Assembly (NCBI GenBank): GCA_947167995.1
Contig: CAMVKS010000004.1
Coordinates: forward strand, 5,604-69,603
From: an uncultured Prevotellaceae bacterium
Lineage (GTDB): Bacteria; Bacteroidota; Bacteroidia; Bacteroidales; Muribaculaceae
Length of the DNA: 64,000 bases
Direction of reading: 5' to 3'
Below are positions 14,496-33,117 of this stretch, piece after piece. How positions within the stretch are numbered: the stretch's first letter is position 1; each line of letters starts with the position of its first letter. A model generated the notes under the pieces. It saw nothing but the letters and a program-made list of their open reading frames with translations. It had not been told where the DNA came from and did no database searches. Both the position numbers and the translations under genes were made by a program.

Positions 14496-17400
14496 TCACG
14501 GATTAACTACCGACGGATAGGCACGGTAATAACTATTGACACCGTCGCTGGCTATGAGCACCAGAGTGAAATAGCCTGGAGCAAGGGGTGCCAGTTCAAC
14601 CGTCTGCATTCCCTGGGTGTAGCCCGGGGTGATGCCAGCGACGGCAGGGTTGTCGACATAGCCCTGAAATCCGCTGCTCAGGGTTTGACCGGTGCTGTTT
14701 TTTACAGCTCTCAGCACCTGAGGAGAGTCGTTAAGAGACATAGTGTTCTTAATGTATCCTACAGTCACACCCCTAAAGGTGTAGGCTGTAGAAATGTCAA
14801 CGCCAGTGAGTATGTAGTCATATATCAATGTTATGTCATAGGCCGTCACAGTTCCATCTTGATTAACATCAAAGTTTCCATCGTAGTCGCTGGCGAGATC
14901 TCCCAGAAAGTAGGAATATATCAAGGTGATATCGGCGGCATTGGTCATATTATCGTCATTGACATCAACCCCATTTTTGAGATAAGAACCGCCCTTGATG
15001 CTTTTTGCACTGCCCCACACCGATGCCGAACCATAGAGCCCTAAGGCCTCAACAGGCACAAACAACGAAACCGACGACACATTCTCGAAGAAACTGTTGT
15101 CGACTTGCGGAGCGGTAGTGTTGCAAAGCCACATTTCGGAGAGCGAAGAACAACCCTTGAAAACTTTAGCTCCAAAGTTTTCTACTTCAGAGGTAAAAAA
15201 CACTTTGCCAAGCAAAGAGCAATTCTCAAAAGCCTCGTCTCCCAAGCTTCGCAGAGTATTGCTGAACACAACTCCCCTGAGCGAAGAGCAACCCTTGAAC
15301 GCGCGGTCGCCAATGTGCATGACCCTACCATGACACAGCGGGAATTGCAGCAACTGCGAGCAATTGACAAAGGCCTCGGCACCAATCTCGCCGAGTAGCT
15401 CACCACCAGTGAAGGTAGTGAGCGAAGAGCAACCGGCAAATGCCCGAACACCAATCTCAAATACCGTTTTAGCCTTCCCCACTGTGGTCAATGCCGCACA
15501 GCCTTTGAAGGCTTCAGCGCCGATGAATGAGAGTTTGTTGTTGAAATTTACAACTTTCAAGTTGTTGTTCCAAGCAGCAGCCTGAGGCATAATAGTATCG
15601 ACCATGCTTGGCAGTGTGAACGACTGTGCCGCTTTATAACGTGGATAGAAGTATAGTATAGTCTCTTTATTGTTATATAAGACACCATCGTTTATTTTTA
15701 AGAACGGGTTTTGACTGCTCACTGTAAACCCTTGCAGTGCTGCGAGCGAAGATAGCGGGTTGATGTTGCCTGCCATGCCTATAGCCGACAGGCTATCGCA
15801 TGAAATATTCAAGTTTTTCACCAATTGTGTCACATGACTCGTCGACGTGGAACTCATCTCTGTGACGTAATAGTTACAGCCACTAAGCTCAATGCTATTG
15901 GGGATGGTGAGAGTGCCACTACTGTTGACGGCTGCAGGCAGCACATCGACAAGTGTCACCTGATGGCGTCTGTTCCAATCATAGGCAAAGTTTCCTAATA
16001 TTTCCACATCGTTGCGCTCTTCGATGCTCTTGAAACCCTGCCATGCCGCCAGCGACTGATAAGCTCCTGCGGCTGCGGTGGGCACCTGCAGTTTCGTTGC
16101 CGACTTGAAACTTGCAGTCAAACCGCTTGTGCTATCGTTGCTGGGATTTGAATTACGGTAGTTGATGGTCTCGATGCTGGCATCTTCAAAACAATTATCA
16201 CCAAAGACAACCACAGTCTCAGGTATCGCCAGCCGTTTCAAATACATCACGCCTTTCATGGCATTCTCTCCCAACTCTTGGGTGCCACAAGGAATATAGA
16301 AGTTGGCATCGGGCTTGGCAATGGGATATATCACAAGCTTGCTCATCTTGTCAAGTATGCCCTCTTGGTACCCATCACTGATTTGGCGTTCAAACAGCAC
16401 GCCTTCGACCGATGCGTAAATGCCGTTCAACGCATCAACAGCAATTTCCTGCAACGATGAGCTTCCTTCAAACGCATCAAAGTCGACAATAGTAACCGAG
16501 CGAGGCAGCATGATTGAGACAAGACTTGGACAATTGCCAAAAGTGGCCTCGCCTATTGTCGACACACCATGCAGCAAGTCAACCTGGCTCAGACTCGTGC
16601 AACCATAAAATGCCATCCGAGGTAAATCACGCAAGGTCGATGGCAACTGAACCGTCGCCAACGAACTGCAACCAGCAAATGCTTTCTCGCCCATATCAGA
16701 AATGCCTTCAACCAGAACGACGTTGTTCAGCTGTTTACATTGTGCAAAACATTCCACGCCAAGCCTGTTGAGCTTCAAGGCTTTGCTGGTGTCGAGCCGC
16801 TTCAGCCACGTAGCCTTGAAGGCCATGTCGCCAATGGAAGTGACATAATACCTGTCGCTGTTGTAGCCTGTAACAGAATTTCTCACCACTACCTCATTGC
16901 CCTGAATGCTCTTGCCCGTCAACGACACCGAATTGGACGAGGTTTTAAGGTACTGATAACCATTGCTGTCGATAAAAGTGTAAGGCAATTCCTCAATGGA
17001 ATATTTCTTCCAGCCATTGGCATTCTCATAAAGAGCGGCAGTGGCTCCAGCGGTTCCCGATGATGGAACTTTGATAGTGACCTTCGACGCATCGAGCGAG
17101 AAAGGATCGCCCTGGAGCAACAACGGTGTCTCTTTCATCACTGTAATGCTGTTCAAGTTTCCACAACCTTCAAATATAGTGATTCCCAAGTGCTGCATGT
17201 TGCCTGGAAGCATTATTCTGGTCAACGACGAGCATCGAGCAAATGCATTTGTGCCCAGGCTTGTAAGACCTCCACGGCCTTCCAGTTCATCGCTCGACAC
17301 CCACTCAACTTTTTCAAGAGCCGAGCAACCCATGAAAGCACCAGTGCCAACCTCGAGTGGCGTGTCGTTGTCGAAATACACGTCACCGAGCGAGGTGCAA

Positions 17401-17798
17401 CCATTAAAGGCATAATCTCCCACTGCAGTGACCGCAGGCGTGATTGTTATTGTTGTCAATGAGCTACAGCCCATGAATGCTCGCTTGCCCAGGCTCACGA
17501 TGTTGTCACCGAGTGTTACCGAGGTGAGGCCGGCACTGTTGCGGAAGGCGTTGTCGCCCACCGCAGTGACGTCATAGACCGTGGTGCCGTTGGCCACATG
17601 CGACGGTATCACCACATGGCCGCTATAGCTGTTGTAAGTGTCGCTCGCACAAGTCACCTCGACTGTCCCAGTGGTGTTATTGATATTGTAGTAGATGCCA
17701 TTGCTGCTGAAATCGTAGGCATGGCATGTGGCATATCCCGTGGCCGCCAGCAAGGCGAGCATCAGCAGGACACGCTGCCACAACTTTATATTTTTCAT
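14496..17798 (-). CDS. BspA-type leucine-rich-repeat surface protein with an internal dockerin and a C-terminal Ig-like segment
   Basis: Many 'IG..AF.GCSSL..V.L' repeats; duplicated DVNxDxxxxAxDITxIY motif near the C-terminus; start moved to MKNIKLW (signal peptide). Confidence 0.9.
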   Translation of the reverse strand: MKNIKLWQRVLLMLALLAATGYATCHAYDFSSNGIYYNINNTTGTVEVTCASDTYNSYSGHVVIPSHVANGTTVYDVTAVGDNAFRNSAGLTSVTLGDNIVSLGKRAFMGCSSLTTITITPAVTAVGDYAFNGCTSLGDVYFDNDTPLEVGTGAFMGCSALEKVEWVSSDELEGRGGLTSLGTNAFARCSSLTRIMLPGNMQHLGITIFEGCGNLNSITVMKETPLLLQGDPFSLDASKVTIKVPSSGTAGATAALYENANGWKKYSIEELPYTFIDSNGYQYLKTSSNSVSLTGKSIQGNEVVVRNSVTGYNSDRYYVTSIGDMAFKATWLKRLDTSKALKLNRLGVECFAQCKQLNNVVLVEGISDMGEKAFAGCSSLATVQLPSTLRDLPRMAFYGCTSLSQVDLLHGVSTIGEATFGNCPSLVSIMLPRSVTIVDFDAFEGSSSLQEIAVDALNGIYASVEGVLFERQISDGYQEGILDKMSKLVIYPIAKPDANFYIPCGTQELGENAMKGVMYLKRLAIPETVVVFGDNCFEDASIETINYRNSNPSNDSTSGLTASFKSATKLQVPTAAAGAYQSLAAWQGFKSIEERNDVEILGNFAYDWNRRHQVTLVDVLPAAVNSSGTLTIPNSIELSGCNYYVTEMSSTSTSHVTQLVKNLNISCDSLSAIGMAGNINPLSSLAALQGFTVSSQNPFLKINDGVLYNNKETILYFYPRYKAAQSFTLPSMVDTIMPQAAAWNNNLKVVNFNNKLSFIGAEAFKGCAALTTVGKAKTVFEIGVRAFAGCSSLTTFTGGELLGEIGAEAFVNCSQLLQFPLCHGRVMHIGDRAFKGCSSLRGVVFSNTLRSLGDEAFENCSLLGKVFFTSEVENFGAKVFKGCSSLSEMWLCNTTAPQVDNSFFENVSSVSLFVPVEALGLYGSASVWGSAKSIKGGSYLKNGVDVNDDNMTNAADITLIYSYFLGDLASDYDGNFDVNQDGTVTAYDITLIYDYILTGVDISTAYTFRGVTVGYIKNTMSLNDSPQVLRAVKNSTGQTLSSGFQGYVDNPAVAGITPGYTQGMQTVELAPLAPGYFTLVLIASDGVNSYYRAYPSVVNP

Positions 17799-17903
17799 TG
17801 ACTTAGCTGGTATTATATATAATTTTATTTTTATATATAACGCAGAAAACACCTTATAAATTATTTAAGACCAAGTTTTTTTGAGCAAAAGCACGTTATT
17901 TCT

Positions 17904-17911
17904 TACCTTTG
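17904..17911 (+). promoter_or_regulatory. Bacteroidota -7 box for the NUDIX gene
   Basis: TACCTTTG 21 nt upstream of the ATG. Confidence 0.6.
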
Positions 17912-17931
17912 TGGAATAAAACAGAAAACTC

Positions 17932-18318
17932 ATGAATAAAAGCATAGAAGTGGTGGCTGCCATAATTGTCGACGAAGAAGGGCGAATTCTTGCCACCAAA
18001 CGCGGATATGGCGACATGAAAGGGGGATGGGAATTCCCTGGAGGAAAAATTGAAGCACATGAGACTGCCCAGCAGGCACTCAAGCGTGAGATTGACGAGG
18101 AACTCGACATGACAATCGAAGTGGGCGAAAAGCTTTGCACAGTGGAGTGGGACTACACTAAATTCCACCTCACAATGCATTGCTACTGGTGCCACATCGT
18201 TAAAGGGCATCCCACTCTGCTTGAGCACGAGGCGGCACGATGGCTCGACCAGGGAAACCTGTGGAGCGTAGACTGGCTGCCAGCCGACATCGAGGTGGTG
18301 AAACATATCATAACATGA
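17932..18318 (+). CDS. NUDIX hydrolase, MutT-like
   Basis: Nudix box GGKIEAHETAQQALKREIDEEL. Confidence 0.93.
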   Translation: MNKSIEVVAAIIVDEEGRILATKRGYGDMKGGWEFPGGKIEAHETAQQALKREIDEELDMTIEVGEKLCTVEWDYTKFHLTMHCYWCHIVKGHPTLLEHEAARWLDQGNLWSVDWLPADIEVVKHIIT

Positions 18319-18531: not shown

Positions 18532-19431
18532 ATGAAAAAAGTTTTATTTGCTTTAGCATTATGCGTGTCTTTTAGTGGGATGGCACAACTCTTGAATGTG
18601 ACTTCGATAGAGAAAATCAACATTCCAGAATCTAATGCCAACAAAGTTGCAGCAATCAGTCCTCAAGGTGACTACATCCTGGTGACTACCGACTACAACT
18701 GTGGTCTCACTAAATTTGACTTGGCAACGGGCGCCTCGCAGGTCATCACCCAGGCGCAAGGAGCCGGTTTTGATGCACAGATCTCAAGCGATGGAAAAAC
18801 TGTTGTCTATCGTGAGAGGTCTACCAAGAACCACTTGCAGATGACCGCCGTCAAATGCAGGAACCTCGAAACGGGTGCCGAGCAGCAGCTCGTAAAACCC
18901 ACTCACAACTTGCAGGCTGTCGCTATCGACGGCAACACTGCCATTGCCATCGACAAGGGCAAGATGTCGAAGAAAGCTATTGCCGAGGGCAAAGCACAGG
19001 TCAGCGTACCGGTACTCTCGACACAGAACTTCTACATGTACATCACCCAGAATGGCAAGACCCGCATGCTCGCACCCAAGGGCAGCGGCTACCGCTACAT
19101 CTGGGCTTCTCTCTCGCCCGATGCCAGCAAGGTGCTCTTCTGCTGCAGTGGCAACGGTGCCTATGTGTGCAACCTTGACGGCAGTGGCCTCATCAGCCTT
19201 GGCAACTACCGCGCTCCCAAGTGGATGGGCAATGACATGGTAGTGGCTATGGACTGCAAGGACAACGGCGAGGTATTCACCTCGAGCGAGGTTGTCGTTC
19301 TTGACCTCAGCGGCGACAAGCAGGTGCTCACTGGCGACGACGTGATTGCCATGTACCCCCTTCCTGCCGATGGCAAGATTGCGTTCTCTACTCCCACCGG
19401 CGAGGCCTATATTATTAACTTTACTAAATAA
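18532..19431 (+). CDS. Secreted beta-propeller (TolB/WD40-like) protein
   Basis: Signal peptide ending SGMA|Q; repeated ISPQGD, ISSDGK, LSPDAS blade motifs. Confidence 0.75.
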   Translation: MKKVLFALALCVSFSGMAQLLNVTSIEKINIPESNANKVAAISPQGDYILVTTDYNCGLTKFDLATGASQVITQAQGAGFDAQISSDGKTVVYRERSTKNHLQMTAVKCRNLETGAEQQLVKPTHNLQAVAIDGNTAIAIDKGKMSKKAIAEGKAQVSVPVLSTQNFYMYITQNGKTRMLAPKGSGYRYIWASLSPDASKVLFCCSGNGAYVCNLDGSGLISLGNYRAPKWMGNDMVVAMDCKDNGEVFTSSEVVVLDLSGDKQVLTGDDVIAMYPLPADGKIAFSTPTGEAYIINFTK

Positions 19432-19446
19432 AGGAGGAACCATATT

Positions 19447-22400
19447 ATGAAGAAATATATACTTTTACTGGCAGCAGCCGTAGTAGCTGGTTTCTCGCTT
19501 CAGGCAAAGACTACCGATGAGTTCCGCATTTATCTGAATCCCGGTCATGGCAGCTATGGTGCCAACGACCGTCCAATGCCAACGATAGGACATCCCCACA
19601 CTGGCCAGCTCAATGCCGAGGGCACTACATGGATGGACACCGACACCCTGGGCTTCTATGAAGGACGTGGCACGCTGCCACGAGCTTTTGGAATTAAGGA
19701 TTATCTTAAATCGGTGGGGGTAAAAAGCGAGAACATCGTAATGAGCCGTGAGGCAAACGGACCATGGCCTTACACCACACCAAATAGCGACTATGACCCC
19801 AATCACATCTACAACAAAAACCTTGCCGACATCTGCGAGGAGGTAGAAGAGGGCAACTTCGACATGTTCATCTCGTCGCACTCCAATGCTGCTACCGACG
19901 GCACAAGCACCAATTATCCGCTGATTCTCTATCGCGGCTACGACACTGGCACCACTGGTCCTGCTGGTTACAACGGACCAGGTGTTGCCGGCAGCGACGA
20001 CATGGCACGCACCGTGTGGCCATTCCACCACATGGGCGAGATTGATCCACAGAGCCACTACAGCGCAACAAGCATGAACGTGCGTGGCGACATCAGCTTC
20101 TATGGCAGCTACAGCACTGCCACACGCAACAATGGCAAGCAGTACAGCGGCTACCTGGGCGTGCTCAAGCATGGCGTTCCAGGCTATCTGAACGAGGGCT
20201 TCTTCCACACCTATCAGCCAGCACGTCACCGCGCTCTGAACTTCGACTACGACCGTCTTGAGGGTATCCGCGAGGCTCGCGGTGTTGCCACCTACTGGGG
20301 TTTCAACCTCACAGGCAAGGGCGAGATTGCCGGTACCGTGAAGGACTTGCACGAGAAAATCGTTGACAACCTCTACAAGTATGCCTACGGCACCGACGAC
20401 CAGTGGCTGCCCATCAATGGCGCACAAGTAGTTCTCAAGAAGAACGGCACCGAGGTTGCTACCTACACCGTCGACAACGAGTGGAACGGATTCTTTGCTT
20501 TCTTCGACCTCGAACCAGGCAACTATACTCTTGAGGCTACCGCCCAGGGCTATAAGCTGCTCGATGAACCCATCGCAGCTACCGTTACCGCCAACAACAC
20601 CTGCTTCTCTTTCATCAAACTTGAGAACGAAAACTACGTTCCCGAGGAGGAAGTTTATGAGAACTATCCCGACCCAGCACAGCCCGCTTATCTCAAGCTT
20701 CCTGGCGAGATTGTCTTTGCTCAGGACGAGGGTACTACCTACGACGGCATACTGGGCAATGTGGCGCAAGCATTGCAGTATGGCGACTCAACTATCGTTC
20801 TCTCGCACGAGGGCAAGCTTGCTCACCTCTACCTTGTTGACAACAACACCAAGCAGGTAGTCAAGGAGCTCAGCACCGAGGGCATCTTCAGCATGGACCA
20901 GCCCAACTTCTACAACCAGATTGGTGCTATCGCTCTGAGTGCCGACCACAAGCTCGTGGGTGTGAGCGCAGTGCGCACCAGCTTCAACAACGACTACACC
21001 GATGGCTACCCACGCGGAACAATGTATGCTTACTACTGGAACGACTTTGACGCAACTCCTACCGAGTGGTTCACGAGTCAGTACTCTTCTAACTTCTACA
21101 GGGCCGACGCCGGATTAGGTCTCGCAGTGAGTGGCCCCGTCAAGGAGGCTGTGGTTTGCGTTCCTATTGCTACTAATAGTACCTCTACACGTGGCGTGCG
21201 GCCTGCATTCTTCGTTATTTCCGAAGGCAATGTAGTAAGCACCAGCCGTGCCAACGCCAATAACACTATCACTCTGGTAGAACTTGGTGACCCATTGGCT
21301 ACCGAAGGCAACTTCGGCAATTATGACGTTGCCAACTATGGTACAATCAAGGTGGCAGTATCGCCATTCAACGACCATGCTTTCATCATTGGTGGCTCAA
21401 AATCTGGCAAGCTCTATGAGTTCCCAGTTACTACCGACGGTGGCATTCCCGATTGCAACGTGTTTAATGCCGATACCGAGCTGCTTGGCAACGGCATGCA
21501 AATCTTCAAGTATGCAGGTCACAAGCTCTTGGTTGCTCCTTACGGAACCAAGAACGACGTGAAGGGCATCAAGGTTTATGACATCACCGATGGCCTGGCA
21601 AATGCTAAGCTCGTGAACACAGTCAATACTGACATCAACACAGATAAGGCTATCACTGCCAACACCGCCGACTTCGCATGGGCCGGTGCTAAGGTCATTG
21701 GTGAGGACATCCACGCTTATCTCGCTGGAAGCGACGCCAACATCGTGAAATTTGCTACCGACGGCGTTGAGCAACCAGTGGTTAAGGGTATCTACGCCTA
21801 CGACCTGAACTACAACCTCGAAGGCGACAACTACACCTTCACTTTCAAGGCTAACGACAATGCCAATGAGGGTTACATCACCTTCCGCGATGTCGACACC
21901 AACGAGGTTCTTGCTACATTCCCACTTTCTAACGTTGTGACTGGTGCCAACGAAATCACCATTCCAGTAGCTGACCTTCCCTCTGTTCCCGATGGTGAGC
22001 AAGGTTGCATCAAGATGCATTGGGAAATCACTCTCGTGGGCGACCCAATCGCACGCATCAACAAGCTTAACAATCCCGATGACTTCACATTTAGCCGCAT
22101 TGGTAATGCTGTTGACGACAATCCCGAGAGTCCTTACTTCGGACGCTTCTACCTCGTTAACCGCATCGGCTCAAGCAACACCAGCAATGCTATCTATGCC
22201 TACACTCCCGAATGGCAACAGATTGGTGGCCCAATCAGCGGTGAGTACACCCTTGGCAACCCATTCCGTCTGGATATCGACCAGAATGGTACTGTTTACC
22301 TTGCCAACTGGGCCGACGGTGCTCGCTCGGGTGTGTTCAAGCTCAATCCCGAGACATTGAGCGGCGACCTTGAGCCATTCTTTATTGGCTCTCACGCCAG

Positions 22401-23283
22401 TGATGGTACTATCACCAACGACGCTGGTCAGATGATGTGTACTTCCACTCCTTCGGTATTCGTTACAGGCACAGGTGCCAACACTCACATGTATTGCCAC
22501 CTTGAGGATGCCAACAACGACATCTCTCAATACAACATTGGTAACGAGGATGGCACAATCATGGAGAACTGGACCGAAGCACCAACCCGCATGTGGGGCA
22601 TTGGCGCTAAGCTCATCAGTACTCATGCAGCAGTGATTGGCGAGACTGAGGATGGTGGTATCTGGGTAGTTCAGAACCGCAGCGCCGGCAACAACAACTC
22701 AAGTGTACCTTCTATCATCTATGTAAACCCAGAGGGACAAATTGTTTATAATAGTGGTGACGTCGACAACCCAATCCACGAGCACCTCACTGGTACTCAA
22801 TACTGCGCAGGTGCTATCAGCGCCGACGGTACCGAGCTTGTTGTTAACCAACCCGACGGAACTCTCAAGTTCTTTGAGATTCAATATGGCAGCGATGGCG
22901 TTCCCGCTTTGAACTACAAGTATGAATACAAGCACGGTGTAGGCAACCTGGTTACTCAAATCAACTATGACTACGCTGGTAACCTGTTCGTTTCGGCCGG
23001 CAAGCTGGCTATCCTGTCAATGCCTACCGAGAACAACACCCACACTACTCCTGCCAAGAGCGAATATATCGTGATGACTGGCGAGGAGCAGCAAGTTATT
23101 CCAGGCGACGTGAACGGCGACGGTGATGTGAACTCAGTGGACATCACTATCCTCTACAACTACCTCCTCAATGGTGACACCGAGGGCATGGTCAACGGCG
23201 ACCAGAGTGGCGACGGTGAAATCACCTCGGTAGATATTACAACTGTTTACAACGTAATCCTCGGCAGTAAGAAAAGAAAATAA
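19447..23283 (+). CDS. Large secreted N-acetylmuramoyl-L-alanine amidase (Amidase_3-like) with C-terminal dockerin
   Basis: YLNPGHG, FYEG, ISSHSNA and LNEGFFH metal/catalytic motifs; carboxypeptidase-regulatory-like Ig segment; terminal GDVNGDGDVNSVDITILYNYLL...GDQSGDGEITSVDITTVYNVIL. Confidence 0.85.
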   Translation: MKKYILLLAAAVVAGFSLQAKTTDEFRIYLNPGHGSYGANDRPMPTIGHPHTGQLNAEGTTWMDTDTLGFYEGRGTLPRAFGIKDYLKSVGVKSENIVMSREANGPWPYTTPNSDYDPNHIYNKNLADICEEVEEGNFDMFISSHSNAATDGTSTNYPLILYRGYDTGTTGPAGYNGPGVAGSDDMARTVWPFHHMGEIDPQSHYSATSMNVRGDISFYGSYSTATRNNGKQYSGYLGVLKHGVPGYLNEGFFHTYQPARHRALNFDYDRLEGIREARGVATYWGFNLTGKGEIAGTVKDLHEKIVDNLYKYAYGTDDQWLPINGAQVVLKKNGTEVATYTVDNEWNGFFAFFDLEPGNYTLEATAQGYKLLDEPIAATVTANNTCFSFIKLENENYVPEEEVYENYPDPAQPAYLKLPGEIVFAQDEGTTYDGILGNVAQALQYGDSTIVLSHEGKLAHLYLVDNNTKQVVKELSTEGIFSMDQPNFYNQIGAIALSADHKLVGVSAVRTSFNNDYTDGYPRGTMYAYYWNDFDATPTEWFTSQYSSNFYRADAGLGLAVSGPVKEAVVCVPIATNSTSTRGVRPAFFVISEGNVVSTSRANANNTITLVELGDPLATEGNFGNYDVANYGTIKVAVSPFNDHAFIIGGSKSGKLYEFPVTTDGGIPDCNVFNADTELLGNGMQIFKYAGHKLLVAPYGTKNDVKGIKVYDITDGLANAKLVNTVNTDINTDKAITANTADFAWAGAKVIGEDIHAYLAGSDANIVKFATDGVEQPVVKGIYAYDLNYNLEGDNYTFTFKANDNANEGYITFRDVDTNEVLATFPLSNVVTGANEITIPVADLPSVPDGEQGCIKMHWEITLVGDPIARINKLNNPDDFTFSRIGNAVDDNPESPYFGRFYLVNRIGSSNTSNAIYAYTPEWQQIGGPISGEYTLGNPFRLDIDQNGTVYLANWADGARSGVFKLNPETLSGDLEPFFIGSHASDGTITNDAGQMMCTSTPSVFVTGTGANTHMYCHLEDANNDISQYNIGNEDGTIMENWTEAPTRMWGIGAKLISTHAAVIGETEDGGIWVVQNRSAGNNNSSVPSIIYVNPEGQIVYNSGDVDNPIHEHLTGTQYCAGAISADGTELVVNQPDGTLKFFEIQYGSDGVPALNYKYEYKHGVGNLVTQINYDYAGNLFVSAGKLAILSMPTENNTHTTPAKSEYIVMTGEEQQVIPGDVNGDGDVNSVDITILYNYLLNGDTEGMVNGDQSGDGEITSVDITTVYNVILGSKKRK

Positions 23284-24192: not shown

Positions 24193-25665
24193 ATGAAACA
24201 CTTTCTACTCACTGCTTGGTGCTTGCTGATGTTGATGGTGGCGCCAAGTGTAAACGCGACAACTATGCACAGTAACGACAACTATAAAATCATGGTCATC
24301 AGCGACCCGCACTTGCTGTCACCTTCACTATACGACGATGGCAATGCGGCGCGGCAGCTCGACAAGAGCGATATGAAGATGGTGATTCAAAGCGATTACA
24401 TCATGCACTCGCTGATCGACGAAATCATAAAGGCTAAACCGCAACTGCTGCTCATCACAGGCGACCTCACTTTCAACGGTGAGAGGGCAAGTCATGAGCG
24501 GCTGGTCGAGCATTTGCAGCGACTTGAGCAGGCTGGGGTGCGCACCTTCGTTATCCCAGGCAACCACGACGTGATGTGCCCTTACAGTAAGCAATACAAG
24601 GGTGATGAGTCTAAGGCTGTTGCCAATGTCACTAGCGAGGATTTTGCCGCGATTTACGCTAATTATGGCTACGGCAACGACTCAAATCGTGACCCTAACT
24701 CTCTGAGTTACATTTGTGAGCCAGTTCCTGGACTGATGCTACTAGGCATCGACAGCAACATTTATGCAGCGAGTCGTGATGAAGAAGTTGTGTATCACAC
24801 CGACGGCACCGTTAAACCCGAGACTATAGAGTGGGTAAAGCAGCAGCTCGCTCAAGCCAAGCAGTCTGGTAAGCGAGTGATAGCTATGATGCACCACCAT
24901 CTGGTGGAGCACATCGATGGTGAAGCACTATTGTTGCCTAACTACATAGCATCTAACCACGACGAGGTGGCACAAGTGCTGCGTGATGGTGGAGTGAAAG
25001 TCGTTTTCACCGGTCATCTTCACATCACAGACGCAGCCACCGAGGATGGAATTACCGATGTTTCGACTGGTTCGGCGTCGACCTATCCCATTGCCATGCG
25101 TACGGCGACTTTTGACTCATCGCACGCCTCATTGAGTATCGATACTCGCATCTTTGACAGCCCCAGTAACTGTGTTCTCAGTCAGGGCCGTGCCAAGATT
25201 GAAAACAGTGCGCCAGCTTTGGCAGGCATCATCTCACGACGACTGTGGGACAAAATCAGCCCACGACTGGAACAGATGAAAGAATTGTTTGCCGAGGAAG
25301 GTGTCGATGTTTCGAAGGTGCCCAACAATGCTGTCGAGCTGTCGGCTTTGCTATTGAGACATCTGCAACAGCCTCTCACTCAAAGCCTCTTGATGGTAGA
25401 GTGCGGAGGTGAGGACCCCAACCAGGCCGCCGCTATCATCGAAGCTGTGAAACAAGGACTGCACGGCATGGTGGCCGACATCTTCCCCGACAATGCCGAC
25501 GAGATAACCGATTTCTTGATTGAGAACGCTATGCCACGAGTGGAACCAATGCTGCGCAGCGCGCTGGAAGACATCAACCAGGTGGGCACTCCACAGCAAT
25601 CCCACACCCACGACCATAGTCTAAGGATTAGACTTGTCGACCAACACCTCTCTACGGAGCTATAA
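24193..25665 (+). CDS. Secreted calcineurin-like metallophosphoesterase
   Basis: SDPH, TGDLT, PGNHD, HH and GHLH motifs; start moved to MKHFLL (signal peptide); last codons lie inside the repeat array. Confidence 0.9.
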   Translation: MKHFLLTAWCLLMLMVAPSVNATTMHSNDNYKIMVISDPHLLSPSLYDDGNAARQLDKSDMKMVIQSDYIMHSLIDEIIKAKPQLLLITGDLTFNGERASHERLVEHLQRLEQAGVRTFVIPGNHDVMCPYSKQYKGDESKAVANVTSEDFAAIYANYGYGNDSNRDPNSLSYICEPVPGLMLLGIDSNIYAASRDEEVVYHTDGTVKPETIEWVKQQLAQAKQSGKRVIAMMHHHLVEHIDGEALLLPNYIASNHDEVAQVLRDGGVKVVFTGHLHITDAATEDGITDVSTGSASTYPIAMRTATFDSSHASLSIDTRIFDSPSNCVLSQGRAKIENSAPALAGIISRRLWDKISPRLEQMKELFAEEGVDVSKVPNNAVELSALLLRHLQQPLTQSLLMVECGGEDPNQAAAIIEAVKQGLHGMVADIFPDNADEITDFLIENAMPRVEPMLRSALEDINQVGTPQQSHTHDHSLRIRLVDQHLSTEL

Positions 25666-26221
25666 TCTACGGAGTCTTGGAGTAATGGAGTTGAAAAATA
25701 AAACTCCTTGGACTCCGTAGACTTTGAGTGGTGTTCAGCTTCAACATCTAATCACCTACAACTCTCTACGGAACTATATTCTACGGAGTCTTGGAGTAAT
25801 GGAGTTGACAATAAAAACTCCTTGGACTCCGTAGACTTTGAGTGGTGTTCAGCTTCAACATCTAATCACCTACAACTCTCTACGGAACTATATTCTACGG
25901 AGTCTTGGAGTAATGGAGTTGAAAAATAAAACTCCTTGGACTCCGTAGACTTTGAGTGGTGTTCAGCTTCAACATCTAATCACCTACAACTCTCTACGGA
26001 ACTATATTCTACGGAGTCTTGGAGTAATGGAGTTGACAATAAAAACTCCTTGGACTCCGTAGACTTTGAGTGGTGTTCAGCTTCAACATCTAATCACCTA
26101 CAACTCTCTACGGAACTATATTCTACGGAGTCTTGGAGTAATGGAGTTGACAATAAAAACTCCTTGGACTCCATGACTCCGTAGACTTTGAGAGGTGAAC
26201 TCAGTAGACTTCAAATCACCT
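25644..26221 (+). repeat. Tandem array of a 114-bp palindromic unit (4 full units plus partial ends)
   Basis: TTGGACTCC recurs at 25708, 25822, 25936, 26050, 26164 (period 114); internal units differ only at GAAAAATAAAA vs GACAATAAAAA. Confidence 0.98.
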
Positions 26222-28018
26222 TAGAATAAGCTCGTAAAGCAGGGTTATATCGGCGGCCGTGAAGTATCCGTCGCCATCGACATCTATATAATAGATTTCA
26301 CCATCACTGAGAAAGTAGTCGTACATGGCAGTGAGATCGGCAGCAGTCAATACTCCATCCTTGTTGATATCGGCTCCACTACCCCACTTGCTGTCCAGCC
26401 AAGAAACCTTTTTAGATATCAAATCAAGATACTGCTGAGGCTTCTCGGGACCATGACTGCTGGCATATAAGGGCCAGCGCAGATAGTCATGAAACTCGGC
26501 TTGTGAAATCATCTCTCTCCACCGCCATGCATGCCTGATGACCTGGTCGAGAATGTGATTGTCGCAGAACTCACGCCACACAAGCCTCACCTCGTGCTGG
26601 AATCGTGGAAACTTGATTATCTCTTTTATCCACAAGAACGGATAATGCGTGCCGTAGTCATAGATGAAATGGTCGCCAGTGGTTTTGTCTTGAAAATAGC
26701 TATTGTCAAAGTCCCATACAGGGCCAAATTTCAGGGGTTCGTCGCCCAAGTCCTTATACAGATACAGGCTGCCCGAGAACGACTCCACATTCTCCAATAT
26801 CTCGTGAATGACATAGAAACGTGCCAGGGTGTGGATGTCGAGCAGACTTTCCCAGCCGCGGTCGCTCTTGTTTGACACATAGACGCAGCTGTCGGCACGA
26901 AACAGCAGGTTGTGGATGTAAGAGCGCTGAACAGACGATAACTGCTCGGGCGATTGAGCTATAAAAGTAAACAGAGGATTGGCTGGGTCATTGTTCTGGT
27001 GTTGCTCTATCACCTTCACGCCGTCATTGGCAAGCTCAAGCAGCCAGCCACCTGTCACATTCTCGGGGATGGTCTCCATGTCGGCTTGCTCCATGATGTC
27101 GACACGGCCACTCTCCACACGTATTTTCTCGCACAGGAAGTACAGTCCCTGATACTCCCCGTTGAGAACCAGCTCCACCGGCACCTCGGTTGGGGTGTAG
27201 GGCATGTTGAGCAGCCGGCTCAGGGTGAATCCTGTGGTGTTGCGCAGATAGCCGCTATAATCCTCGTTGTGTGCCAAGAGCACAAAATGCCGGCTCTTCT
27301 CAAGGCCTAAGGGAGACTGTTTAGATGCAAATTTCAGTCTATAGGGCTTTTTGTCGGAATGCAACCAAGTCCAGTGTCCACGACCTTTCACCTCAATGTC
27401 GAGAGGCTCATCCTCGCTGCCAAGCGATGAAAACCCGTCGTCAATCCACAACGTGCCGCCGATGTAATATTCTTTACTCGAGATTGTTGCCGAGTTCTGT
27501 GTGTTGAGATACACCACTGGCAGAGTGCCCGAAACGGTCACCGTGTAGCTGAAGTCGGGGCGCCAATAACCATCGCTCAGCTGTGCGTCGTTCAATGGGT
27601 AGTAAATCCATTTATCCGACTTGTTCCAGTCGATAAACATTTTCGATTTGAGACTTGTGCGTCTCAACTGTTCATCACATGCCTCGCTCAAGCTATCGAG
27701 AAACATGCTCAAGCGTGTGTAATAAGTGCCCGACGGCACATCGGCATCCACAAAGGTGAAATAACTCAATCCGTAAAGAGGGCTATCGATAGTGGCTTTC
27801 CACCAACCGCCCTTCACATCCTGAGTCATGTCGTAAACTCTGGTAAATTCATTGGTCACATTGCCCACAACCATCTTCACATGCGAGTACTTGACCTTGC
27901 TGTTGTCGAAATAATAGTCACCCTGTGCGACATCAAGCGCGAGCATGTCAAGGGTGCCCACACTCATCAGTGCAAGCATCAGCACAAGACCTACCTTTAT
28001 GTTCACAGGATGTTTCAT
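26216..28018 (-). CDS. CotH-family secreted kinase with C-terminal dockerin (copy 1)
   Basis: KGRGHWTW...KKPYRLKF, LYFLCEKI, GPVWDFDNS; terminal DINKDGVLTAADL / DVDGDGYFTAADITLLY. Confidence 0.9.
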   Translation of the reverse strand: MKHPVNIKVGLVLMLALMSVGTLDMLALDVAQGDYYFDNSKVKYSHVKMVVGNVTNEFTRVYDMTQDVKGGWWKATIDSPLYGLSYFTFVDADVPSGTYYTRLSMFLDSLSEACDEQLRRTSLKSKMFIDWNKSDKWIYYPLNDAQLSDGYWRPDFSYTVTVSGTLPVVYLNTQNSATISSKEYYIGGTLWIDDGFSSLGSEDEPLDIEVKGRGHWTWLHSDKKPYRLKFASKQSPLGLEKSRHFVLLAHNEDYSGYLRNTTGFTLSRLLNMPYTPTEVPVELVLNGEYQGLYFLCEKIRVESGRVDIMEQADMETIPENVTGGWLLELANDGVKVIEQHQNNDPANPLFTFIAQSPEQLSSVQRSYIHNLLFRADSCVYVSNKSDRGWESLLDIHTLARFYVIHEILENVESFSGSLYLYKDLGDEPLKFGPVWDFDNSYFQDKTTGDHFIYDYGTHYPFLWIKEIIKFPRFQHEVRLVWREFCDNHILDQVIRHAWRWREMISQAEFHDYLRWPLYASSHGPEKPQQYLDLISKKVSWLDSKWGSGADINKDGVLTAADLTAMYDYFLSDGEIYYIDVDGDGYFTAADITLLYELILR

Positions 28019-28273: not shown

Positions 28274-28300
28274 CAGTGCTTTTAAAAGAAAAATGCTACT

Positions 28301-29929
28301 ATGAAACTAAATTTCTTTGCGACAATAGCACTGTCAATGGCTTTGCTGCCTGCTGTGGCTCAAGTGGATGAGACAACTCCTGAAGGGCGCGCACGCCTTT
28401 CGTGCACCAGCATCATGGTGGGCAAGAACGCCAGCACCGACGGCTCGGTGATAACCTCCCACACCTGCGACTCATGGTACCGCACATGGATGACCATGAC
28501 ACCGGCACGCGACTATGAGAGCGGCGCGATGACCGCCATCTACGAGGGCCGCATGCACACACAAAGCGCCAGCGACAGCACCAAGCTCTATGTTAAGGGC
28601 ATGATTCCACAGGTGCGACACACGTTCCGCTTTCTCGACACCTCCTATCCCTGCTTGAACGAGAAACAGGTGGCGATGGGCGAGACCACCATTGGCGGCC
28701 GTGACACCTTGCGCAACAAGAATGGCATGTTCTATATCGAGGAGCTGCAGCGCATAGCTCTGGAACGATGCTCTACCGCAAGAGAAGCCATTGCCTTGAT
28801 GGGCAGTCTGGCCGAGCAGTACGGCTACTGCGACAGCGGCGAATGTCTCACCGTAGCCGACCCCAACGAGGTGTGGATCTTTGAGATATTTGGCGCAGGT
28901 CCCAAGAAAGTGGGAGCCGTGTGGGCTGCCGTGCGCATCCCCGACGACGAGATTGCCGTCTCGGCCAACATTTCGCGCATCGGCACCCTCGACCTCAACG
29001 ACAAGGATCATTACATGGCCTCGGCCAACGTCAAGGAAGTCGCCCGCCAGCTCAAGCTGTGGGACGGAAAAGAGGAGTTCAACTTCTTCAAAGCCTATAG
29101 CGGCGAGAACTACTTCCATGAGAAGAAAAACTACAGCGTGCGTGAGCACTATATCATGAGTGTGCTGGCGCCATCGCTCAACCTGAGCGACACAGTGGCA
29201 TGGCTGCCGCTGAGCGTGAAACCCGATGCAAAGGTGAGTCCCGAGCAGGTGATGCAGTTGCTGGGAAGCTACTACGAGGGTTCCGACAAGAACCTGAGCG
29301 GACGTCACATGATTCCCAACCCTAAACGACGCGACAAGGACGGCAACCTCGTGGAGAATGAGCCCGATAGCATAGTATCGCCATTCAGCAACCCATGGAT
29401 GCGCCCCGACGAGATAAACATGTACTACGCCATGGGCGACTCGGCGATGAAGAACATACGCACCGTGAGCGTGCCCTGGTGTGCCTACAGTACTGTCATC
29501 CAGTGTCGCTCATGGTTGCCCAACGAGATAGGCGGCGTGGCTTGGGTGGCCCTCGACAATCCTGGCGAGAGTCCACGATTCCCAATCTTCGCAGGCACTA
29601 CCGAGCTCCCCAAGATGTTGCAGGTGTGTGGCCAGCACAGCGACCGCGACGATGCCGCCCTGTGGCACTACCGCAAGGCCAACCGTCTCGCCACCGTGCG
29701 CTGGGGCAAATTCCGCTCTATAATAGAGCCGCAACGCGACTACTTCACCGAGAAGGGCATGAGAGAACTGCACTATGTTGAACAGACCTGGCAGAGACTC
29801 AACGCCACCACCCCCGACAAGGCACAATCAATGCTCAACGGATATGTCGCCGACTTCTTCGGAGCCACTATCTTGCGCTGGGACGAAATCGCACGCGACC
29901 TGTGGCGACAAAACTGGACTGGATTTTAA
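28301..29929 (+). CDS. Peptidase C69 family dipeptidase, secreted
   Basis: SCTSIMVGKNASTDGS N-terminal nucleophile motif, LNEKQVAMGETT; signal peptide ending LPAVA|Q. Confidence 0.9.
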   Translation: MKLNFFATIALSMALLPAVAQVDETTPEGRARLSCTSIMVGKNASTDGSVITSHTCDSWYRTWMTMTPARDYESGAMTAIYEGRMHTQSASDSTKLYVKGMIPQVRHTFRFLDTSYPCLNEKQVAMGETTIGGRDTLRNKNGMFYIEELQRIALERCSTAREAIALMGSLAEQYGYCDSGECLTVADPNEVWIFEIFGAGPKKVGAVWAAVRIPDDEIAVSANISRIGTLDLNDKDHYMASANVKEVARQLKLWDGKEEFNFFKAYSGENYFHEKKNYSVREHYIMSVLAPSLNLSDTVAWLPLSVKPDAKVSPEQVMQLLGSYYEGSDKNLSGRHMIPNPKRRDKDGNLVENEPDSIVSPFSNPWMRPDEINMYYAMGDSAMKNIRTVSVPWCAYSTVIQCRSWLPNEIGGVAWVALDNPGESPRFPIFAGTTELPKMLQVCGQHSDRDDAALWHYRKANRLATVRWGKFRSIIEPQRDYFTEKGMRELHYVEQTWQRLNATTPDKAQSMLNGYVADFFGATILRWDEIARDLWRQNWTGF

Positions 29930-29964
29930 TATATAGCTCATAGTTGATCGTCGCAAGCACAAAC

Positions 29965-30000
29965 TTAAACACTTAACATTTACTACTTAACACTTAATAA
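29965..30000 (+). repeat. TTAACAC-type heptamer tract immediately upstream of ychF (family A)
   Basis: TTAAACAC TTAACAT TTACTAC TTAACAC TTAATAA, then TT-ATG. Confidence 0.75.
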
Positions 30001-30002
30001 TT

Positions 30003-31103
30003 ATGGCACTTCAATGTGGTATCGTGGGACTTCCCAACGTGGGCAAGTCAACATTGTTCAACTGCTTGTCGAATGCTAAGGCACAATCGGCAAATTTTCC
30101 CTTCTGTACAATAGAGCCCAACGTGGGCGTAATCACCGTTCCCGACGAGCGACTTAACAAGCTTGCCGAGCTGGTTAATCCTGCCAGGGTGGTACCCACG
30201 ACAGTGGAAATTGTCGATATTGCCGGCCTGGTGAAAGGAGCAAGCCGAGGTGAGGGCCTGGGCAACAAGTTCCTTGCCAACATACGCGAGACCGATGCCA
30301 TCTTGCACGTGCTTCGTTGCTTTGACGACGACAACATCACCCACGTGGATGGTACTGTCGACCCCGTGCGCGACAAGGAAGTGATCGACACCGAGCTCCA
30401 GCTGCGCGACCTCGAGACCATTGAGAGCCGCATAGGCAAGGTGGCTAAGATGGCAGCTGCCGGAGAGCGCGATGCCAAGATGCAGCACGAGGTACTCAAG
30501 CGATATCAGGAAGTGCTGAGCCAGGGCAAGAGCGCACGCAGCGTCACCCTCGAGACTAAAGACGAGCAGAAATTTGCCCACGACTTGTTCCTGTTGACCA
30601 ACAAGCCAGTGCTCTACGTGTGCAACGTCGACGATGCCAGTGCCGTAACTGGCAACAAATATGTGGATGCAGTGCGTGAAGCCGTCAAGGAAGAGAATGC
30701 CGAGATTCTCGTTGTGGCAGCGCAGACCGAGAGCGACATCGCCGAGCTCGAGACCTATGAGGAGCGACAGATGTTCCTCGAGGAAATAGGACTGAAGGAG
30801 AGCGGTGTGAACCGATTGATCAAGGCTGCCTACAAGCTGCTCGACCTTGAGACGTTCCTCACCGCTGGACCCAAAGAGGTGCGCGCCTGGACTTTCCGCA
30901 AGGGCAGCAAGGCACCACAGTGCGCCGGCGTGATTCACACCGACTTCGAGCGTGGCTTCATTCGTGCCGAAATCATAAAATATGAGGACTACATCCACTA
31001 TGGCAGCGAGGCGGCAGTGAAAGAGGCTGGCAAAATGCACATCGAGGGCAAAGACTACGTGTTCCAGGACGGCGACATCGTGGTGTTCCGCTTCAACGTC
31101 TAA
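30003..31103 (+). CDS. ychF: Redox-regulated ribosome-binding ATPase YchF
   Basis: GIVGLPNVGKSTLFN, NFPFCTIEPN, DIAGLV, GLGNKFL, C-terminal TGS domain ending DGDIVVFRFNV. Confidence 0.99.
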   Translation: MALQCGIVGLPNVGKSTLFNCLSNAKAQSANFPFCTIEPNVGVITVPDERLNKLAELVNPARVVPTTVEIVDIAGLVKGASRGEGLGNKFLANIRETDAILHVLRCFDDDNITHVDGTVDPVRDKEVIDTELQLRDLETIESRIGKVAKMAAAGERDAKMQHEVLKRYQEVLSQGKSARSVTLETKDEQKFAHDLFLLTNKPVLYVCNVDDASAVTGNKYVDAVREAVKEENAEILVVAAQTESDIAELETYEERQMFLEEIGLKESGVNRLIKAAYKLLDLETFLTAGPKEVRAWTFRKGSKAPQCAGVIHTDFERGFIRAEIIKYEDYIHYGSEAAVKEAGKMHIEGKDYVFQDGDIVVFRFNV

Positions 31104-31347
31104 TCACCTGCACATCTCTACGGAGATAAACTCTACGGAGTCTTGGAGTAATGGAGTTGAAAAATAAAAACTCCTTGGACTCCGTAGGCTTTGAATGGTA
31201 TTCCGCTTCAACGTCTAATTACCTACACCTCTCTACGGAGATTTATTCTACGGAGTCTTGGAGTAATGGAGTTGAAAAACAAAAACTCCTTGGACTCCAT
31301 GACTCCGTAGACTTTAAGCAGTGAACTCCGTAGACTTTAAATCACCT
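31080..31347 (+). repeat. Two-unit array of the same repeat, starting inside the ychF 3' end
   Basis: ychF tail at 31080 and a second tail ATGGTATTCCGCTTCAACGTCTAA at 31195; same CTACGGAGTC/GACTCCGTAG hairpins; ends at the CotH-2 stop codon. Confidence 0.97.
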
Positions 31348-33117
31348 TAGAATAAGGTTGTAAAGGGCGGTGATATCGGCGGCAGTAATTTCTCCGTCGC
31401 TGGTTATATCGCTTGTACTTAGGAAAGTATCATTACCATTAAGTAAATAATCGTAGAGGGTGGTGATGTCGGCAGCAGTGACGATTCCGTCGCAGTTCAC
31501 ATCGCCATTTGCTACGCTCCACTGCTCGTTGAGCCAGTTGTATTTGCTTTGAAAATAGCTCTTGAAGAGGTCACGGTCATAGTAAAGTTCGGCATTACCA
31601 TAATCGGGCCACCTTAATGCATCAAAAATTGCCGCTTGGTAAATCTTATTAATAAAACTGTCAATAAAGCTATCTGTCATCTCCTTGTAATGTAGCGAGA
31701 CATATCGCCGCCAATGTTTCTTAACTATCTGCTGGAAATGCGGAAATTTTGCAATCTCGCCAATCCATGTCTGCGTGGTCATAGGCTCCTCGTAAATAAA
31801 CTTGTCGGTGATGCCACGACAGAAAGCGTTGCCGAAATCCCACACTGGCCCGAACAAAATCTTCGAGCTTTCTCCTTTTTCCTTATGCCAGAAGCAGCTG
31901 CCATGGAACGACTCGGTGTCGTCGAGCAACTCCTGTACGATATAGAAGCAAGCCAATGTATCGGGGTCGATATATGTCTCCCAACTGTTGTCGGTCTTGT
32001 CGGTGACATAGATTGCTGAATCTACAATATTTATTAAGTCTAGGAGATATTCTCGCTGGGGGTAGCTCAGGTGTTCGGGTGACTTGTAGGTCAAGTTAAT
32101 CGCCTGTCCGTTGCTCTCAACGGTTTGAATCTGCTCCTCTTCATAGTAATTGTCAATCTCAACCAGCCAGCCACCAGTAATCTTGAGACTGTCGGTCTCA
32201 TAATCGGCCTGCTCCGTCACATTTACGCGGTTGGGTTCTACACGCACCGTTTCGGTTAGCATATAAAGCCCAATATAGTCGCCATTGAGCACCACCTCTA
32301 CTGGTCGCTGCGACGGTGTCCACGCAAGCCCCAACTGCCTGCTCAACTCATATCCCACAGCGTGACGCAGAAAACCCAGATAGTCATCGGCATTGGCAAT
32401 CAATGCCCAATGCTTATTGCGTTTCATGCCCAGCAGTGCTGTTTTCTTGTCGAGCTTGATGCGGTAAGGCTTCTTGTCGTAGTATTCCCATGTATAGTTT
32501 CCGCGCCCTCTAATCTGCATCAGATTTGGAGCATCGGCAGCCCCCACATTGTCAATGCCCTCGATGCCCATGTTGTCAATATAATAATAGGCATAAATGT
32601 ATTCATCTTTTGATGTTATGGGCATAGAATCCTCGGTGTTGATGAACATCACAGGCAAAGTCCCAGAGTAGGATATTGGCTGACCGAGCATCAACCAGAT
32701 TCCCGATGTCCAATTATTTCCACCAGTTGGTGTGAACACCCACCCTACCGGGATAGGGATGTTGAAAGTCGTGGTGTGCTTTCCGTTTAGCGAGATGATT
32801 CTGGTAATCATGCTCGAAGGATCCTCGTTATAAAACCCATCGGGTAACGAAGTCTCGACAAAGCAATAGCAGTGCATTCCTGTCACAGTCTCGGGGATTG
32901 TGATACTCCAAAGACTGTCCTCCTCATTTGTCATTGTCACCACATAGATCTCGGAATTAGAATAGTTGCCATAGACAAACTTCACAACGGAGTAATTTGT
33001 CAGCGAATTGTTGAAATAAAACTTACCTTTGGGAATGTTGAGCGCACTAACAGTAAAACCAGCCAATGCCACCAATAACACACAGAAGAATATAATCAGT
33101 TTTTTCATCACAATCAT
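31342..33117 (-). CDS. CotH-family secreted kinase with C-terminal dockerin (copy 2)
   Basis: RGRGNYTW...KKPYRIKL, LYMLTETV, GPVWDFGNA; terminal GDVNCDGIVTAADITTLY / DITSDGEITAADITALY. Confidence 0.9.
   Translation of the reverse strand: MIVMKKLIIFFCVLLVALAGFTVSALNIPKGKFYFNNSLTNYSVVKFVYGNYSNSEIYVVTMTNEEDSLWSITIPETVTGMHCYCFVETSLPDGFYNEDPSSMITRIISLNGKHTTTFNIPIPVGWVFTPTGGNNWTSGIWLMLGQPISYSGTLPVMFINTEDSMPITSKDEYIYAYYYIDNMGIEGIDNVGAADAPNLMQIRGRGNYTWEYYDKKPYRIKLDKKTALLGMKRNKHWALIANADDYLGFLRHAVGYELSRQLGLAWTPSQRPVEVVLNGDYIGLYMLTETVRVEPNRVNVTEQADYETDSLKITGGWLVEIDNYYEEEQIQTVESNGQAINLTYKSPEHLSYPQREYLLDLINIVDSAIYVTDKTDNSWETYIDPDTLACFYIVQELLDDTESFHGSCFWHKEKGESSKILFGPVWDFGNAFCRGITDKFIYEEPMTTQTWIGEIAKFPHFQQIVKKHWRRYVSLHYKEMTDSFIDSFINKIYQAAIFDALRWPDYGNAELYYDRDLFKSYFQSKYNWLNEQWSVANGDVNCDGIVTAADITTLYDYLLNGNDTFLSTSDITSDGEITAADITALYNLILR

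Follow-up and report, generated by a model that had tools for sequence, protein, structure and literature searches.

Why should a Gram-negative rumen bacterium equip adhesins and other secreted proteins with dockerins? Cohesin-dockerin complexes are textbook machinery of Gram-positive bacteria that degrade plant fibres. The question is raised by positions 14496-33117 of the window, i.e. of the stretch of 64,000 nucleotides from a Muribaculaceae genome which was analysed here. In this segment a first-pass annotation had noticed duplicated dockerin motifs on four secreted proteins, a leucine-rich repeat (LRR) adhesin, an amidase and two CotH proteins, with no cohesin or glycoside hydrolase in view. 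It proposed that the dockerin is a general tag for non-cellulolytic cargo and that a single receptor recognizes it. Our analysis of the whole genome and its relatives indicates, as far as sequences can tell, that the four proteins are likely clients of a cohesin-dockerin assembly system encoded throughout the genome of a Gram-negative bacterium which possesses a type IX secretion system (T9SS).

The window modules are dockerins

Open reading frames (ORFs) were called mechanically throughout, from stop to stop with the first methionine as the start. Window positions of dockerin modules were converted from those on contig C4, which contains the window (genome G000). All four modules scored above the gathering score of the Pfam family Dockerin_1 (PF00404, 22.9 bits). 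They consist of tandem segments of about 22 residues, a Ca-binding loop followed by a helix, and the duplicated segment reads D-x-N-x-D-G-x-(V/I)-T-A-A-D-I-T-x-(L/V)-Y-x-x-(I/L)-L. Over 102 modules the Ca-loop positions D2, N4, D6, D13, D33, N35, D37 and D44 are 89-100% conserved, with N, D and T together making up 94% at position N35; the window modules fit this pattern. A profile of 97 dockerins from the genome matched the type I dockerins of C. thermocellum at E=5e-14.

Structure prediction, which the first-pass annotation had suggested as a check, was carried out with the dockerin of CotH protein 2. The AlphaFold2 (AF2) model, based on an alignment of the 97 genome dockerins, had a predicted local distance difference test score (pLDDT) of 95.4. 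It displayed two helices, 14-26 and 45-56, as an F-hand pair. In a comparison with the PDB the top 33 matches were all dockerins with template modelling (TM) scores of 0.66-0.89, and most of the top-ranked ones were of type I. The motifs had been read correctly: the window modules are genuine dockerins in identity and in modelled fold, and binding of calcium and of cohesins is predicted.

The dockerins of the genome form two classes. Class A comprises 89 uniform dockerins on cargo and adaptors, including all four window modules (consensus GDVNGDGEVTAADITALYNYLLNNDTTYIVNGDVNGDGNITAADITAVYNILLG). Class B consists of about 12 divergent dockerins, almost only on structural proteins that bear cohesins, C-terminal domains (CTDs) or tails. 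The putative recognition pair is AA in 42, SA in 13, TV in 11 and VA in 7 cases. Both halves of each window dockerin share one pair (AA/AA or SV/SV). Such symmetric pairs go along with a dual binding mode in clostridial type I dockerins.

Dockerins are spread over the genome on mostly non-CAZyme cargo

The genome is a rumen Muribaculaceae metagenome-assembled genome (MAG) of 2.93 Mb, distributed over 121 contigs, with a completeness of 96% and a contamination of 0.6%. It has 114 matches to PF00404. The genome-wide census with profile hidden Markov models (HMMs), which had also been suggested at the outset, gave 106 dockerin ORFs with an iterated dockerin profile, about 4% of the proteome at a rough estimate of 2,400 genes. 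At the genome-wide density 0.67 dockerin genes would be expected within 18.6 kb, and four are present here (Poisson P=0.005); equally dense clusters are present on three other contigs. Contamination of the MAG by a Firmicute was considered and rejected. Dockerin ORFs reside on more than 60 contigs and some of these polypeptides also have T9SS tails; furthermore, a Muribaculaceae enolase is encoded in the window and 11 other Muribaculaceae MAG species have orthologous loci.

Cargo families were counted by a Pfam scan of all 106 dockerin ORFs. BspA-type LRR_5 domains were found in 16, CotH in 8 (13 by BLAST cluster) and peptidases in another 16 (C10 in 7, S8 in 5, M6 in 4). FGE-sulfatase and DUF285 were present in four each, CBM26 in seven, alpha-amylase in two, and GHL10, NAGPA, PAP2 and Cthe_2159 in one each. 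The cargo is overwhelmingly devoid of carbohydrate-active enzymes (CAZymes), and about 10% is starch-related. Conceivably, the latter fraction is what matters, i.e. the bacterium has an ordinary polysaccharide-degrading complex, an amylosome or a cellulosome, with the starch enzymes as real clients and the remainder as incidental passengers. The alpha-amylases, the CBM26, GHL10 and Cthe_2159 proteins would fit, as would the many homologues of the CotH-dockerin proteins that carry a CBM26; the literature ties these MAGs to GH13 (PMC9863278). Yet about 90% of the clients have no CAZyme domain. LRR adhesins, CotH proteins and peptidases dominate, the scaffoldins described below have no carbohydrate-binding module (CBM) and the window region has no glycoside hydrolase. 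This makes such a complex quite improbable. The first-pass annotation had itself named a scaffoldin serving mainly CAZyme-dockerins as the explanation opposed to its own. A scaffoldin does exist, but the clients are not mainly plant-cell-wall CAZymes as those of a cellulosome are.

Divergent cohesins are encoded elsewhere in the genome

Pfam detected no cohesin and no glycoside hydrolase in the seven large ORFs scanned within 14496-33117, and genome-wide cohesin searches placed none on the window contig. The absence of cohesins thus holds for the window but not genome-wide. Seven matches to the Pfam cohesin family PF00963 were obtained in the genome, four over the cut-off and three below. The matching proteins show regular repeats of about 130 residues, and a profile made from these repeats revealed 28 cohesin modules in 16 ORFs. 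Its best sequence matches in the PDB were cohesins (6kgc at E=3e-4, then 2xdh and 5n5p), and Pfam Cohesin was the top family for 12 of 26 modules (E<1). The AF2 model of one module had a pLDDT of 97.5 and nine strands in a beta-sandwich of jelly-roll type; the top 36 PDB matches were all cohesins (TM up to 0.77). Profile matches and the predicted fold together identify the 28 modules as genuine but divergent cohesins.

The cohesins fall into four clades, and those next to a tail or CTD form one clade of their own. With two dockerin classes, four cohesin clades and a variable recognition pair, the single receptor proposed initially is unlikely. The architectures would be compatible with a pairing of dockerin class and cohesin clade.

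Of the 16 cohesin proteins, whose layouts are listed in Table 1, 14 also contain a dockerin. A multi-cohesin scaffoldin, as known from cellulosomes, is represented by the six-cohesin protein on contig C3, and scaffoldins with two to six cohesins exist in 11 related species. In a Pfam scan of the cohesin proteins neither a CBM nor an SLH domain was found. Likewise, there was no family match for the tails that follow the cohesins on C8 and C45, for the N-terminal 320 residues of the C3 anchor, or for the pair of CTD proteins encoded in the scaffoldin cluster. Of 70 orthologues of the six-cohesin protein, about 65 bear only PF00404 in public annotation, under the names 'hypothetical' or 'dockerin type I repeat-containing protein'. 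The RUG378 MAG holds such an orthologue, yet it is missing from the multi-cohesin list of the original paper on that MAG.

Further cohesin loci were noted. At C1:114300-119928 four consecutive genes on the same strand encode LRR-cohesin-dockerin-cohesin-CTD, cohesin-dockerin-cohesin-dockerin, X-cohesin-dockerin and cohesin-dockerin, i.e. a second scaffoldin-type operon; the dockerins are of class B in three of the four genes and of class A in the last. A near-duplicate cassette at C2:1461-12250 and C17:43853-50606 has the protein with three cohesins, two immunoglobulin (Ig)-like domains and a dockerin beside a large S8 subtilase, which has a dockerin of class B as well as a T9SS-like tail; a gene for a C10 peptidase with dockerin adjoins on C2. 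Large proteins encoded at C8:48257-53308 and C45:14672-17908 combine a class B dockerin, a cohesin and a 75-residue tail (..IVIVSPxDGxAQLxLPNGMxKTVxVxxGRNxYPxPxxGxxIVxMGN..), which may be another sorting signal.

Dockerins and cohesins co-occur in relatives

In related genomes at most 48 candidates were scored per genome, and dockerin counts there are lower bounds. Among 121 Muribaculaceae genomes 26 had both modules, 8 only cohesins, 20 only dockerins and 67 neither. This corresponds to an odds ratio of 10.9 (Fisher P=1.5e-7, not corrected for phylogeny). A large expansion of dockerins is confined to the window genus and one other genus. Within the window genus, genome G016 (99% complete) has no dockerin, no cohesin and no CotH, and its sister genomes have 36 to more than 100 dockerins. 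Judged from G016, the whole system is gained or lost as a unit within the genus. Two other congeners, G046 and G074, are rich in dockerins and have only three cohesin proteins. The tail of one of these is a CTD by our own HMM; the other two look like sorting signals by eye only. These minimal systems point to a cell-bound cohesin as the conserved partner.

Foreguts of cattle, buffalo, goat and red deer are the source of the related MAGs. The gene order CTD protein, CTD protein, X-dockerin-cohesin-CTD, cohesin(2-6)-dockerin is kept in 11 ruminant MAG species. There, the scaffoldin is located directly downstream of the X-dockerin-cohesin-CTD gene and the two other tail-bearing genes.

Relatives also allowed a comparison of dockerins and sorting tails on the same cargo. 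In dockerin-free Muribaculaceae, CotH homologues located with the Pfam CotH model have T9SS-like tails in 5 of 9 cases by our own HMM and in 6 of 9 by eye. In the window genome dockerins and tails are both used: 7 vs 2 in Peptidase C10, 4 vs 1 in M6, 7 vs 3 in CBM26 and 1 vs 1 in PAP2 proteins. A CotH ORF without dockerin did not appear in the genome list, which was derived from an HMM of full-length, dockerin-including CotH proteins and was otherwise unused. The most likely reading is that the dockerin has replaced the T9SS CTD on many cargo families in this lineage. The idea of a general tag on non-cellulolytic secreted cargo is thus upheld at the genomic level, by the census, the cargo and the tag exchange.

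Sorting tails and the route to the cell surface

The T9SS type A sorting domain was searched with TIGR04183 at its curated cut-off of 23 bits. Tails following a cohesin passed in the C3 anchor (23.1-23.4 bits) and in both C85 proteins (25.8 and 23.1 bits); that of the C1 protein stayed just under the cut-off with 19.3 bits. Dockerin proteins on C21 and C43 passed as well (all passing proteins 23.1-34.5 bits). In total, the genome has 12 curated T9SS tails, five of them on dockerin proteins. Pfam PF18962 detects few tails of this lineage, TIGR04183 somewhat more. With our own iterated HMM, which possibly drifted, about 56 to 61 additional short tails were found at C-termini; they have the form ...YYNLxG...GIYIxNGKKVxxK and presumably depend on the T9SS also. 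As the cohesin anchors end in a T9SS sorting domain, they would be exported and fixed to the outer surface. SprA is present in the window genome and in all 121 Muribaculaceae genomes sampled; accordingly, the T9SS was rejected as a lineage-specific correlate of the dockerins. About 20 ORFs encode large secreted proteins with another C-terminal motif, ..VRYYNxxGVESxxPFxGVNIVVxxYSDGSxxTxKVxK (e.g. C15:31980-35009 and C20:32170-37284). A motif of this type also ends one cohesin protein in congeners, and it had no match to a curated T9SS model.

The four window proteins lack the type A domain (TIGR04183), in keeping with the first-pass annotation, which saw no T9SS C-terminal domain on them. Three of the dockerins are at the extreme C-terminus and leave no room for a T9SS tail. 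In the LRR protein the dockerin is followed by a 102-residue tail (14499-14807), for which searches with curated models gave no match to any family or T9SS model. Nearly all dockerin ORFs of the genome start with type I signal peptides, and clear lipoprotein signals were not seen. A loose pattern flagged seven with a cysteine. Lipoprotein export of the clients was considered and, with N-termini that nearly all resemble type I signal peptides, is unlikely.

The dockerin is within 15 residues of the C-terminus in 77 of the 106 ORFs, directly behind the signal peptide in about 13-15, and internal in the rest. Might it be an outer-membrane export or sorting signal itself, a CTD substitute that is read directly by the secretion machine, cohesin binding being secondary? 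It sits where homologous cargo has a CTD, mostly at the very end of proteins without any other signal for crossing the outer membrane. However, the N-terminal and internal dockerins do not conform to this, and several proteins possess both a dockerin and a curated T9SS CTD. The dockerin fold, a helical F-hand pair, is unlike the beta-sandwich of a CTD. Moreover, dockerins are C-terminal as a rule in Gram-positive cellulosomes as well. We hold a direct export signal to be improbable.

Alternatively, dockerin proteins and scaffoldins without a CTD could form complexes in the periplasm or in the lumen of vesicles. All these proteins have is a Sec signal peptide. On the other hand, BspA-type LRR adhesins, CBM26 modules and secreted proteases are surface-bound or extracellular elsewhere, and cohesins fused to T9SS tails point outward. 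Periplasmic assembly is highly improbable.

A probable cohesin-dockerin assembly at the cell surface

We return to the assembly system of which the window proteins are likely clients. Its working may be envisaged as follows. The clients, with a type I signal peptide, an adhesin, CotH or amidase-like cargo and a type-I-like duplicated dockerin, would be exported by Sec. Both dockerin loops would take up calcium and the dockerin would plug into the divergent cohesins. We infer that these dockerins bind these cohesins. The cohesins would be presented by two kinds of carriers. One kind has a T9SS sorting domain, with the layouts X-dockerin-cohesin-CTD or LRR-cohesin-dockerin-cohesin-CTD; by virtue of their sorting tails these proteins should be anchored at the surface. 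The other kind are soluble adaptor scaffoldins with one to six cohesins and a dockerin of their own, which in turn would dock onto the anchors. The outcome would be a mixed surface complex of adhesins, proteases, CotH proteins and a few starch-active proteins.

Several findings weigh against this proposal. The 106 dockerins face only 28 cohesins. By our own profile no cohesin was found in genome G001, which has at least 33 dockerins, although this genome is only 85% complete. Within the family 20 of the 46 dockerin-positive genomes have no cohesin match. The curated models miss most of the short tails found with our HMM, as they recognize only 12 in the genome. Finally, neither the dockerin-only proteins nor the multi-cohesin scaffoldin carry a known signal for crossing the outer membrane. 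Lipoprotein and T9SS signals are missing from them, and known machinery does not account for the surface location of most components.

The numerical imbalance, G001 and the cohesin-free genomes would agree with dockerins that are orphans. Such dockerins would have no cohesin-related role; they would be Ca-binding stabilizers or would bind another ligand such as a glycan, lipopolysaccharide (LPS) or a surface protein, and the few cohesins would serve a small separate system. This comes close to the published 'non-amylosomal' reading, since the dockerins of rumen Muribaculaceae C941 were reported without cohesins (PMC9863278). Against this, cohesins do exist but evade standard models, and the scaffoldin orthologues are nearly all annotated as dockerin proteins only. 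Dockerins and cohesins co-occur strongly and share a polypeptide in most cohesin proteins, and the genes for anchor and scaffoldin are side by side in a conserved manner. Cohesin proteins with C-terminal tails are retained even in the congeners that have few cohesins. The orphan explanation appears improbable to us.

How might clients of the assembly system reach the surface? Possibly they hitch-hike: dockerin proteins and dockerin-bearing scaffoldins exported by Sec would acquire their fold in the periplasm, bind there to the cohesin of a CTD anchor and cross as a folded, non-covalent complex via the SprA translocon. We regard this as a rather unlikely, tentative idea. If true, the cohesin-dockerin pair would be an export coupler as well as a surface-display connector, and type IX secretion would have its first described piggy-back route.

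Features of the window locus and of the cohesin proteins

Of the cargo labels in the first-pass annotation, LRR and CotH were borne out. Both CotH proteins belong to PF08757 by sequence (98.6 and 103.9 bits, cut-off 23.8). The amidase label is weak: Amidase_3 (PF01520) matched the 1278-aa protein at E=0.0028 and 18.1 bits, below the cut-off of 27, and a PDB sequence match for this protein was absent. In its paralogue on contig C21 a clear T9SS type A tail (TIGR04183, 34.4 bits) comes after the dockerin. The 1278-aa gene and the preceding 299-aa gene are on the same strand, 15 nt apart, and probably co-transcribed. The true start of the LRR protein is likely the ATG at 17798, which gives 1100 residues.

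A search with CotH protein 2 yielded 3728 public proteins at E<=1e-10. The best 120 of these all combine CotH with a dockerin, mostly in a form of 700 aa that has a CBM26 in addition. This CotH-dockerin family is very abundant in ruminant metagenomes. Directly 3' of each CotH-dockerin gene is a tandem array of 114/115-bp units, the second of which starts within the last codons of ychF.

Table 1. Location and properties of features in the window (positions in nucleotides of the window) and of cohesin proteins in the genome (contigs).
Feature	Location	Strand	Properties
BspA-type LRR surface protein	14496..17852	-	1118 aa from GTG; LRR_5 E=6e-96, six stretches; type I signal peptide
Dockerin of the LRR protein, class A	14808..14966	-	aa 963-1015, internal; PF00404 38.2 bits
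Secreted 299-aa protein	18532..19431	+	no dockerin; no family match
Secreted 1278-aa protein	19447..23283	+	type I signal peptide; N-terminus weakly Amidase_3-like, then CarboxypepD_reg/prealbumin-like domain, long unassigned middle part, C-terminal dockerin
Dockerin of the 1278-aa protein, class A	23101..23259	+	aa 1219-1271; 41.9 bits; recognition pair SV in both repeats
Tandem array, 114/115 bp	25640-26172		4.7 copies, 96% identity
CotH-family protein 1	26216..28018	-	600 aa; type I signal peptide; C-terminal dockerin; CotH E=6e-28
Dockerin of CotH protein 1, class A	26231..26371	-	aa 550-596; 29.5 bits
Tandem array, 114/115 bp	31081-31298		1.9 copies, 92% identity
CotH-family protein 2	31342..33117	-	591 aa; type I signal peptide; C-terminal dockerin; CotH E=2e-29
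Dockerin of CotH protein 2, class A	31348..31506	-	aa 538-590; 37.0 bits; module chosen for the structure model
Other genes of 14496-33117: metallophosphoesterase, C69 peptidase, YchF			no dockerin, cohesin or glycoside hydrolase by Pfam
Six-cohesin scaffoldin	C3		916 aa; signal peptide, six cohesins, dockerin
Three cohesins, two Ig-like domains, dockerin	C2 and C17		two proteins
Small proteins, one or two cohesins and dockerin	C8, C45, C1		several
Cargo-dockerin-cohesin-C-terminal tail	C3; C85; C1; C8; C45		573 aa (C3); 663 and 671 aa (C85); 761 aa (C1); 1684 aa (C8); 1079 aa (C45)
Cohesin and tail, no dockerin	C28		one protein

Comparison with known systems

In its logic, the cellulosome of R. 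flavefaciens, with the scaffoldins ScaA and ScaB, the adaptor ScaC and the cell-anchored ScaE, is the closest system. It shares more than 100 dockerin proteins per genome, LRR proteins and proteases among them, multi-cohesin scaffoldins with a dockerin of their own, adaptors, several dockerin groups and cohesin clades, and clustered scaffoldin and anchor (sca) genes. The differences are considerable, however. The host here is a Gram-negative Bacteroidota member, so clients must cross an outer membrane, and anchoring would be by a T9SS sorting domain instead of a sortase. There are essentially no plant-cell-wall enzymes, a CBM is missing from the scaffoldins and the cohesins are too divergent for routine detection. 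A high ratio of dockerins to cohesins and clients with amylase and CBM26 domains are reminiscent of Ruminococcus albus and of the amylosome of R. bromii, as are single cohesins on cell-bound proteins in G046 and G074. Here, though, starch-active clients are a small minority, and envelope and anchoring route differ.

Regarding cargo, the system resembles T9SS display in Porphyromonas and Tannerella. C10 peptidases, BspA-type LRR proteins and adhesins are displayed there, and T9SS tails, here on the cohesin anchors, and SprA are shared. In those bacteria the CTD is removed and the protein is linked to anionic LPS, whereas most cargo here has a non-covalent dockerin instead. Display would be indirect, via cohesins, and modular.

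Bacteroidetes dockerins have been encountered before. They were described in rumen metagenomes, including C10 peptidase-dockerin proteins (Bensoussan 2017, PMC6487960), and dockerin-rich Bacteroidetes bins were obtained from camel rumen (PMC6071333). Rumen 'Muribaculaceae C941' was reported to have many dockerins and GH13 'but without cohesin' and was read as non-amylosomal (Lin et al. 2023, PMC9863278). These reports of few or no cohesins led to proposals of cellulosome-like fibre degradation or of a 'non-amylosomal' mode; in contrast, hidden cohesins, scaffoldins and T9SS-tailed anchors were identified here. True Bacteroidota are not mentioned in a 2024 genome survey of bacteria that display cellulosomes (PMC11557425). 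In the searchable literature neither multi-cohesin scaffoldins nor cohesin anchors with T9SS tails turned up for Bacteroidota, which does not prove that no description exists.

Implications

The connectors known from the plant-fibre-degrading complexes of Gram-positive bacteria are used at the scale of a cellulosome in an abundant, uncultured Gram-negative rumen lineage. What they display appears to be adhesins, proteases and CotH proteins instead of cellulases, and the sockets are probably anchored by the T9SS. Surveys which count 'dockerins without cohesins' in Bacteroidota overlook divergent cohesins, and dockerin counts from rumen metagenomes should not be taken as cellulosome potential. 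For the biology of these bacteria, the system raises a testable question, i.e. by which route folded, non-covalently attached proteins arrive at the surface of a diderm cell. The modules could also be put to use in Bacteroidota surface display, as orthogonal connectors.

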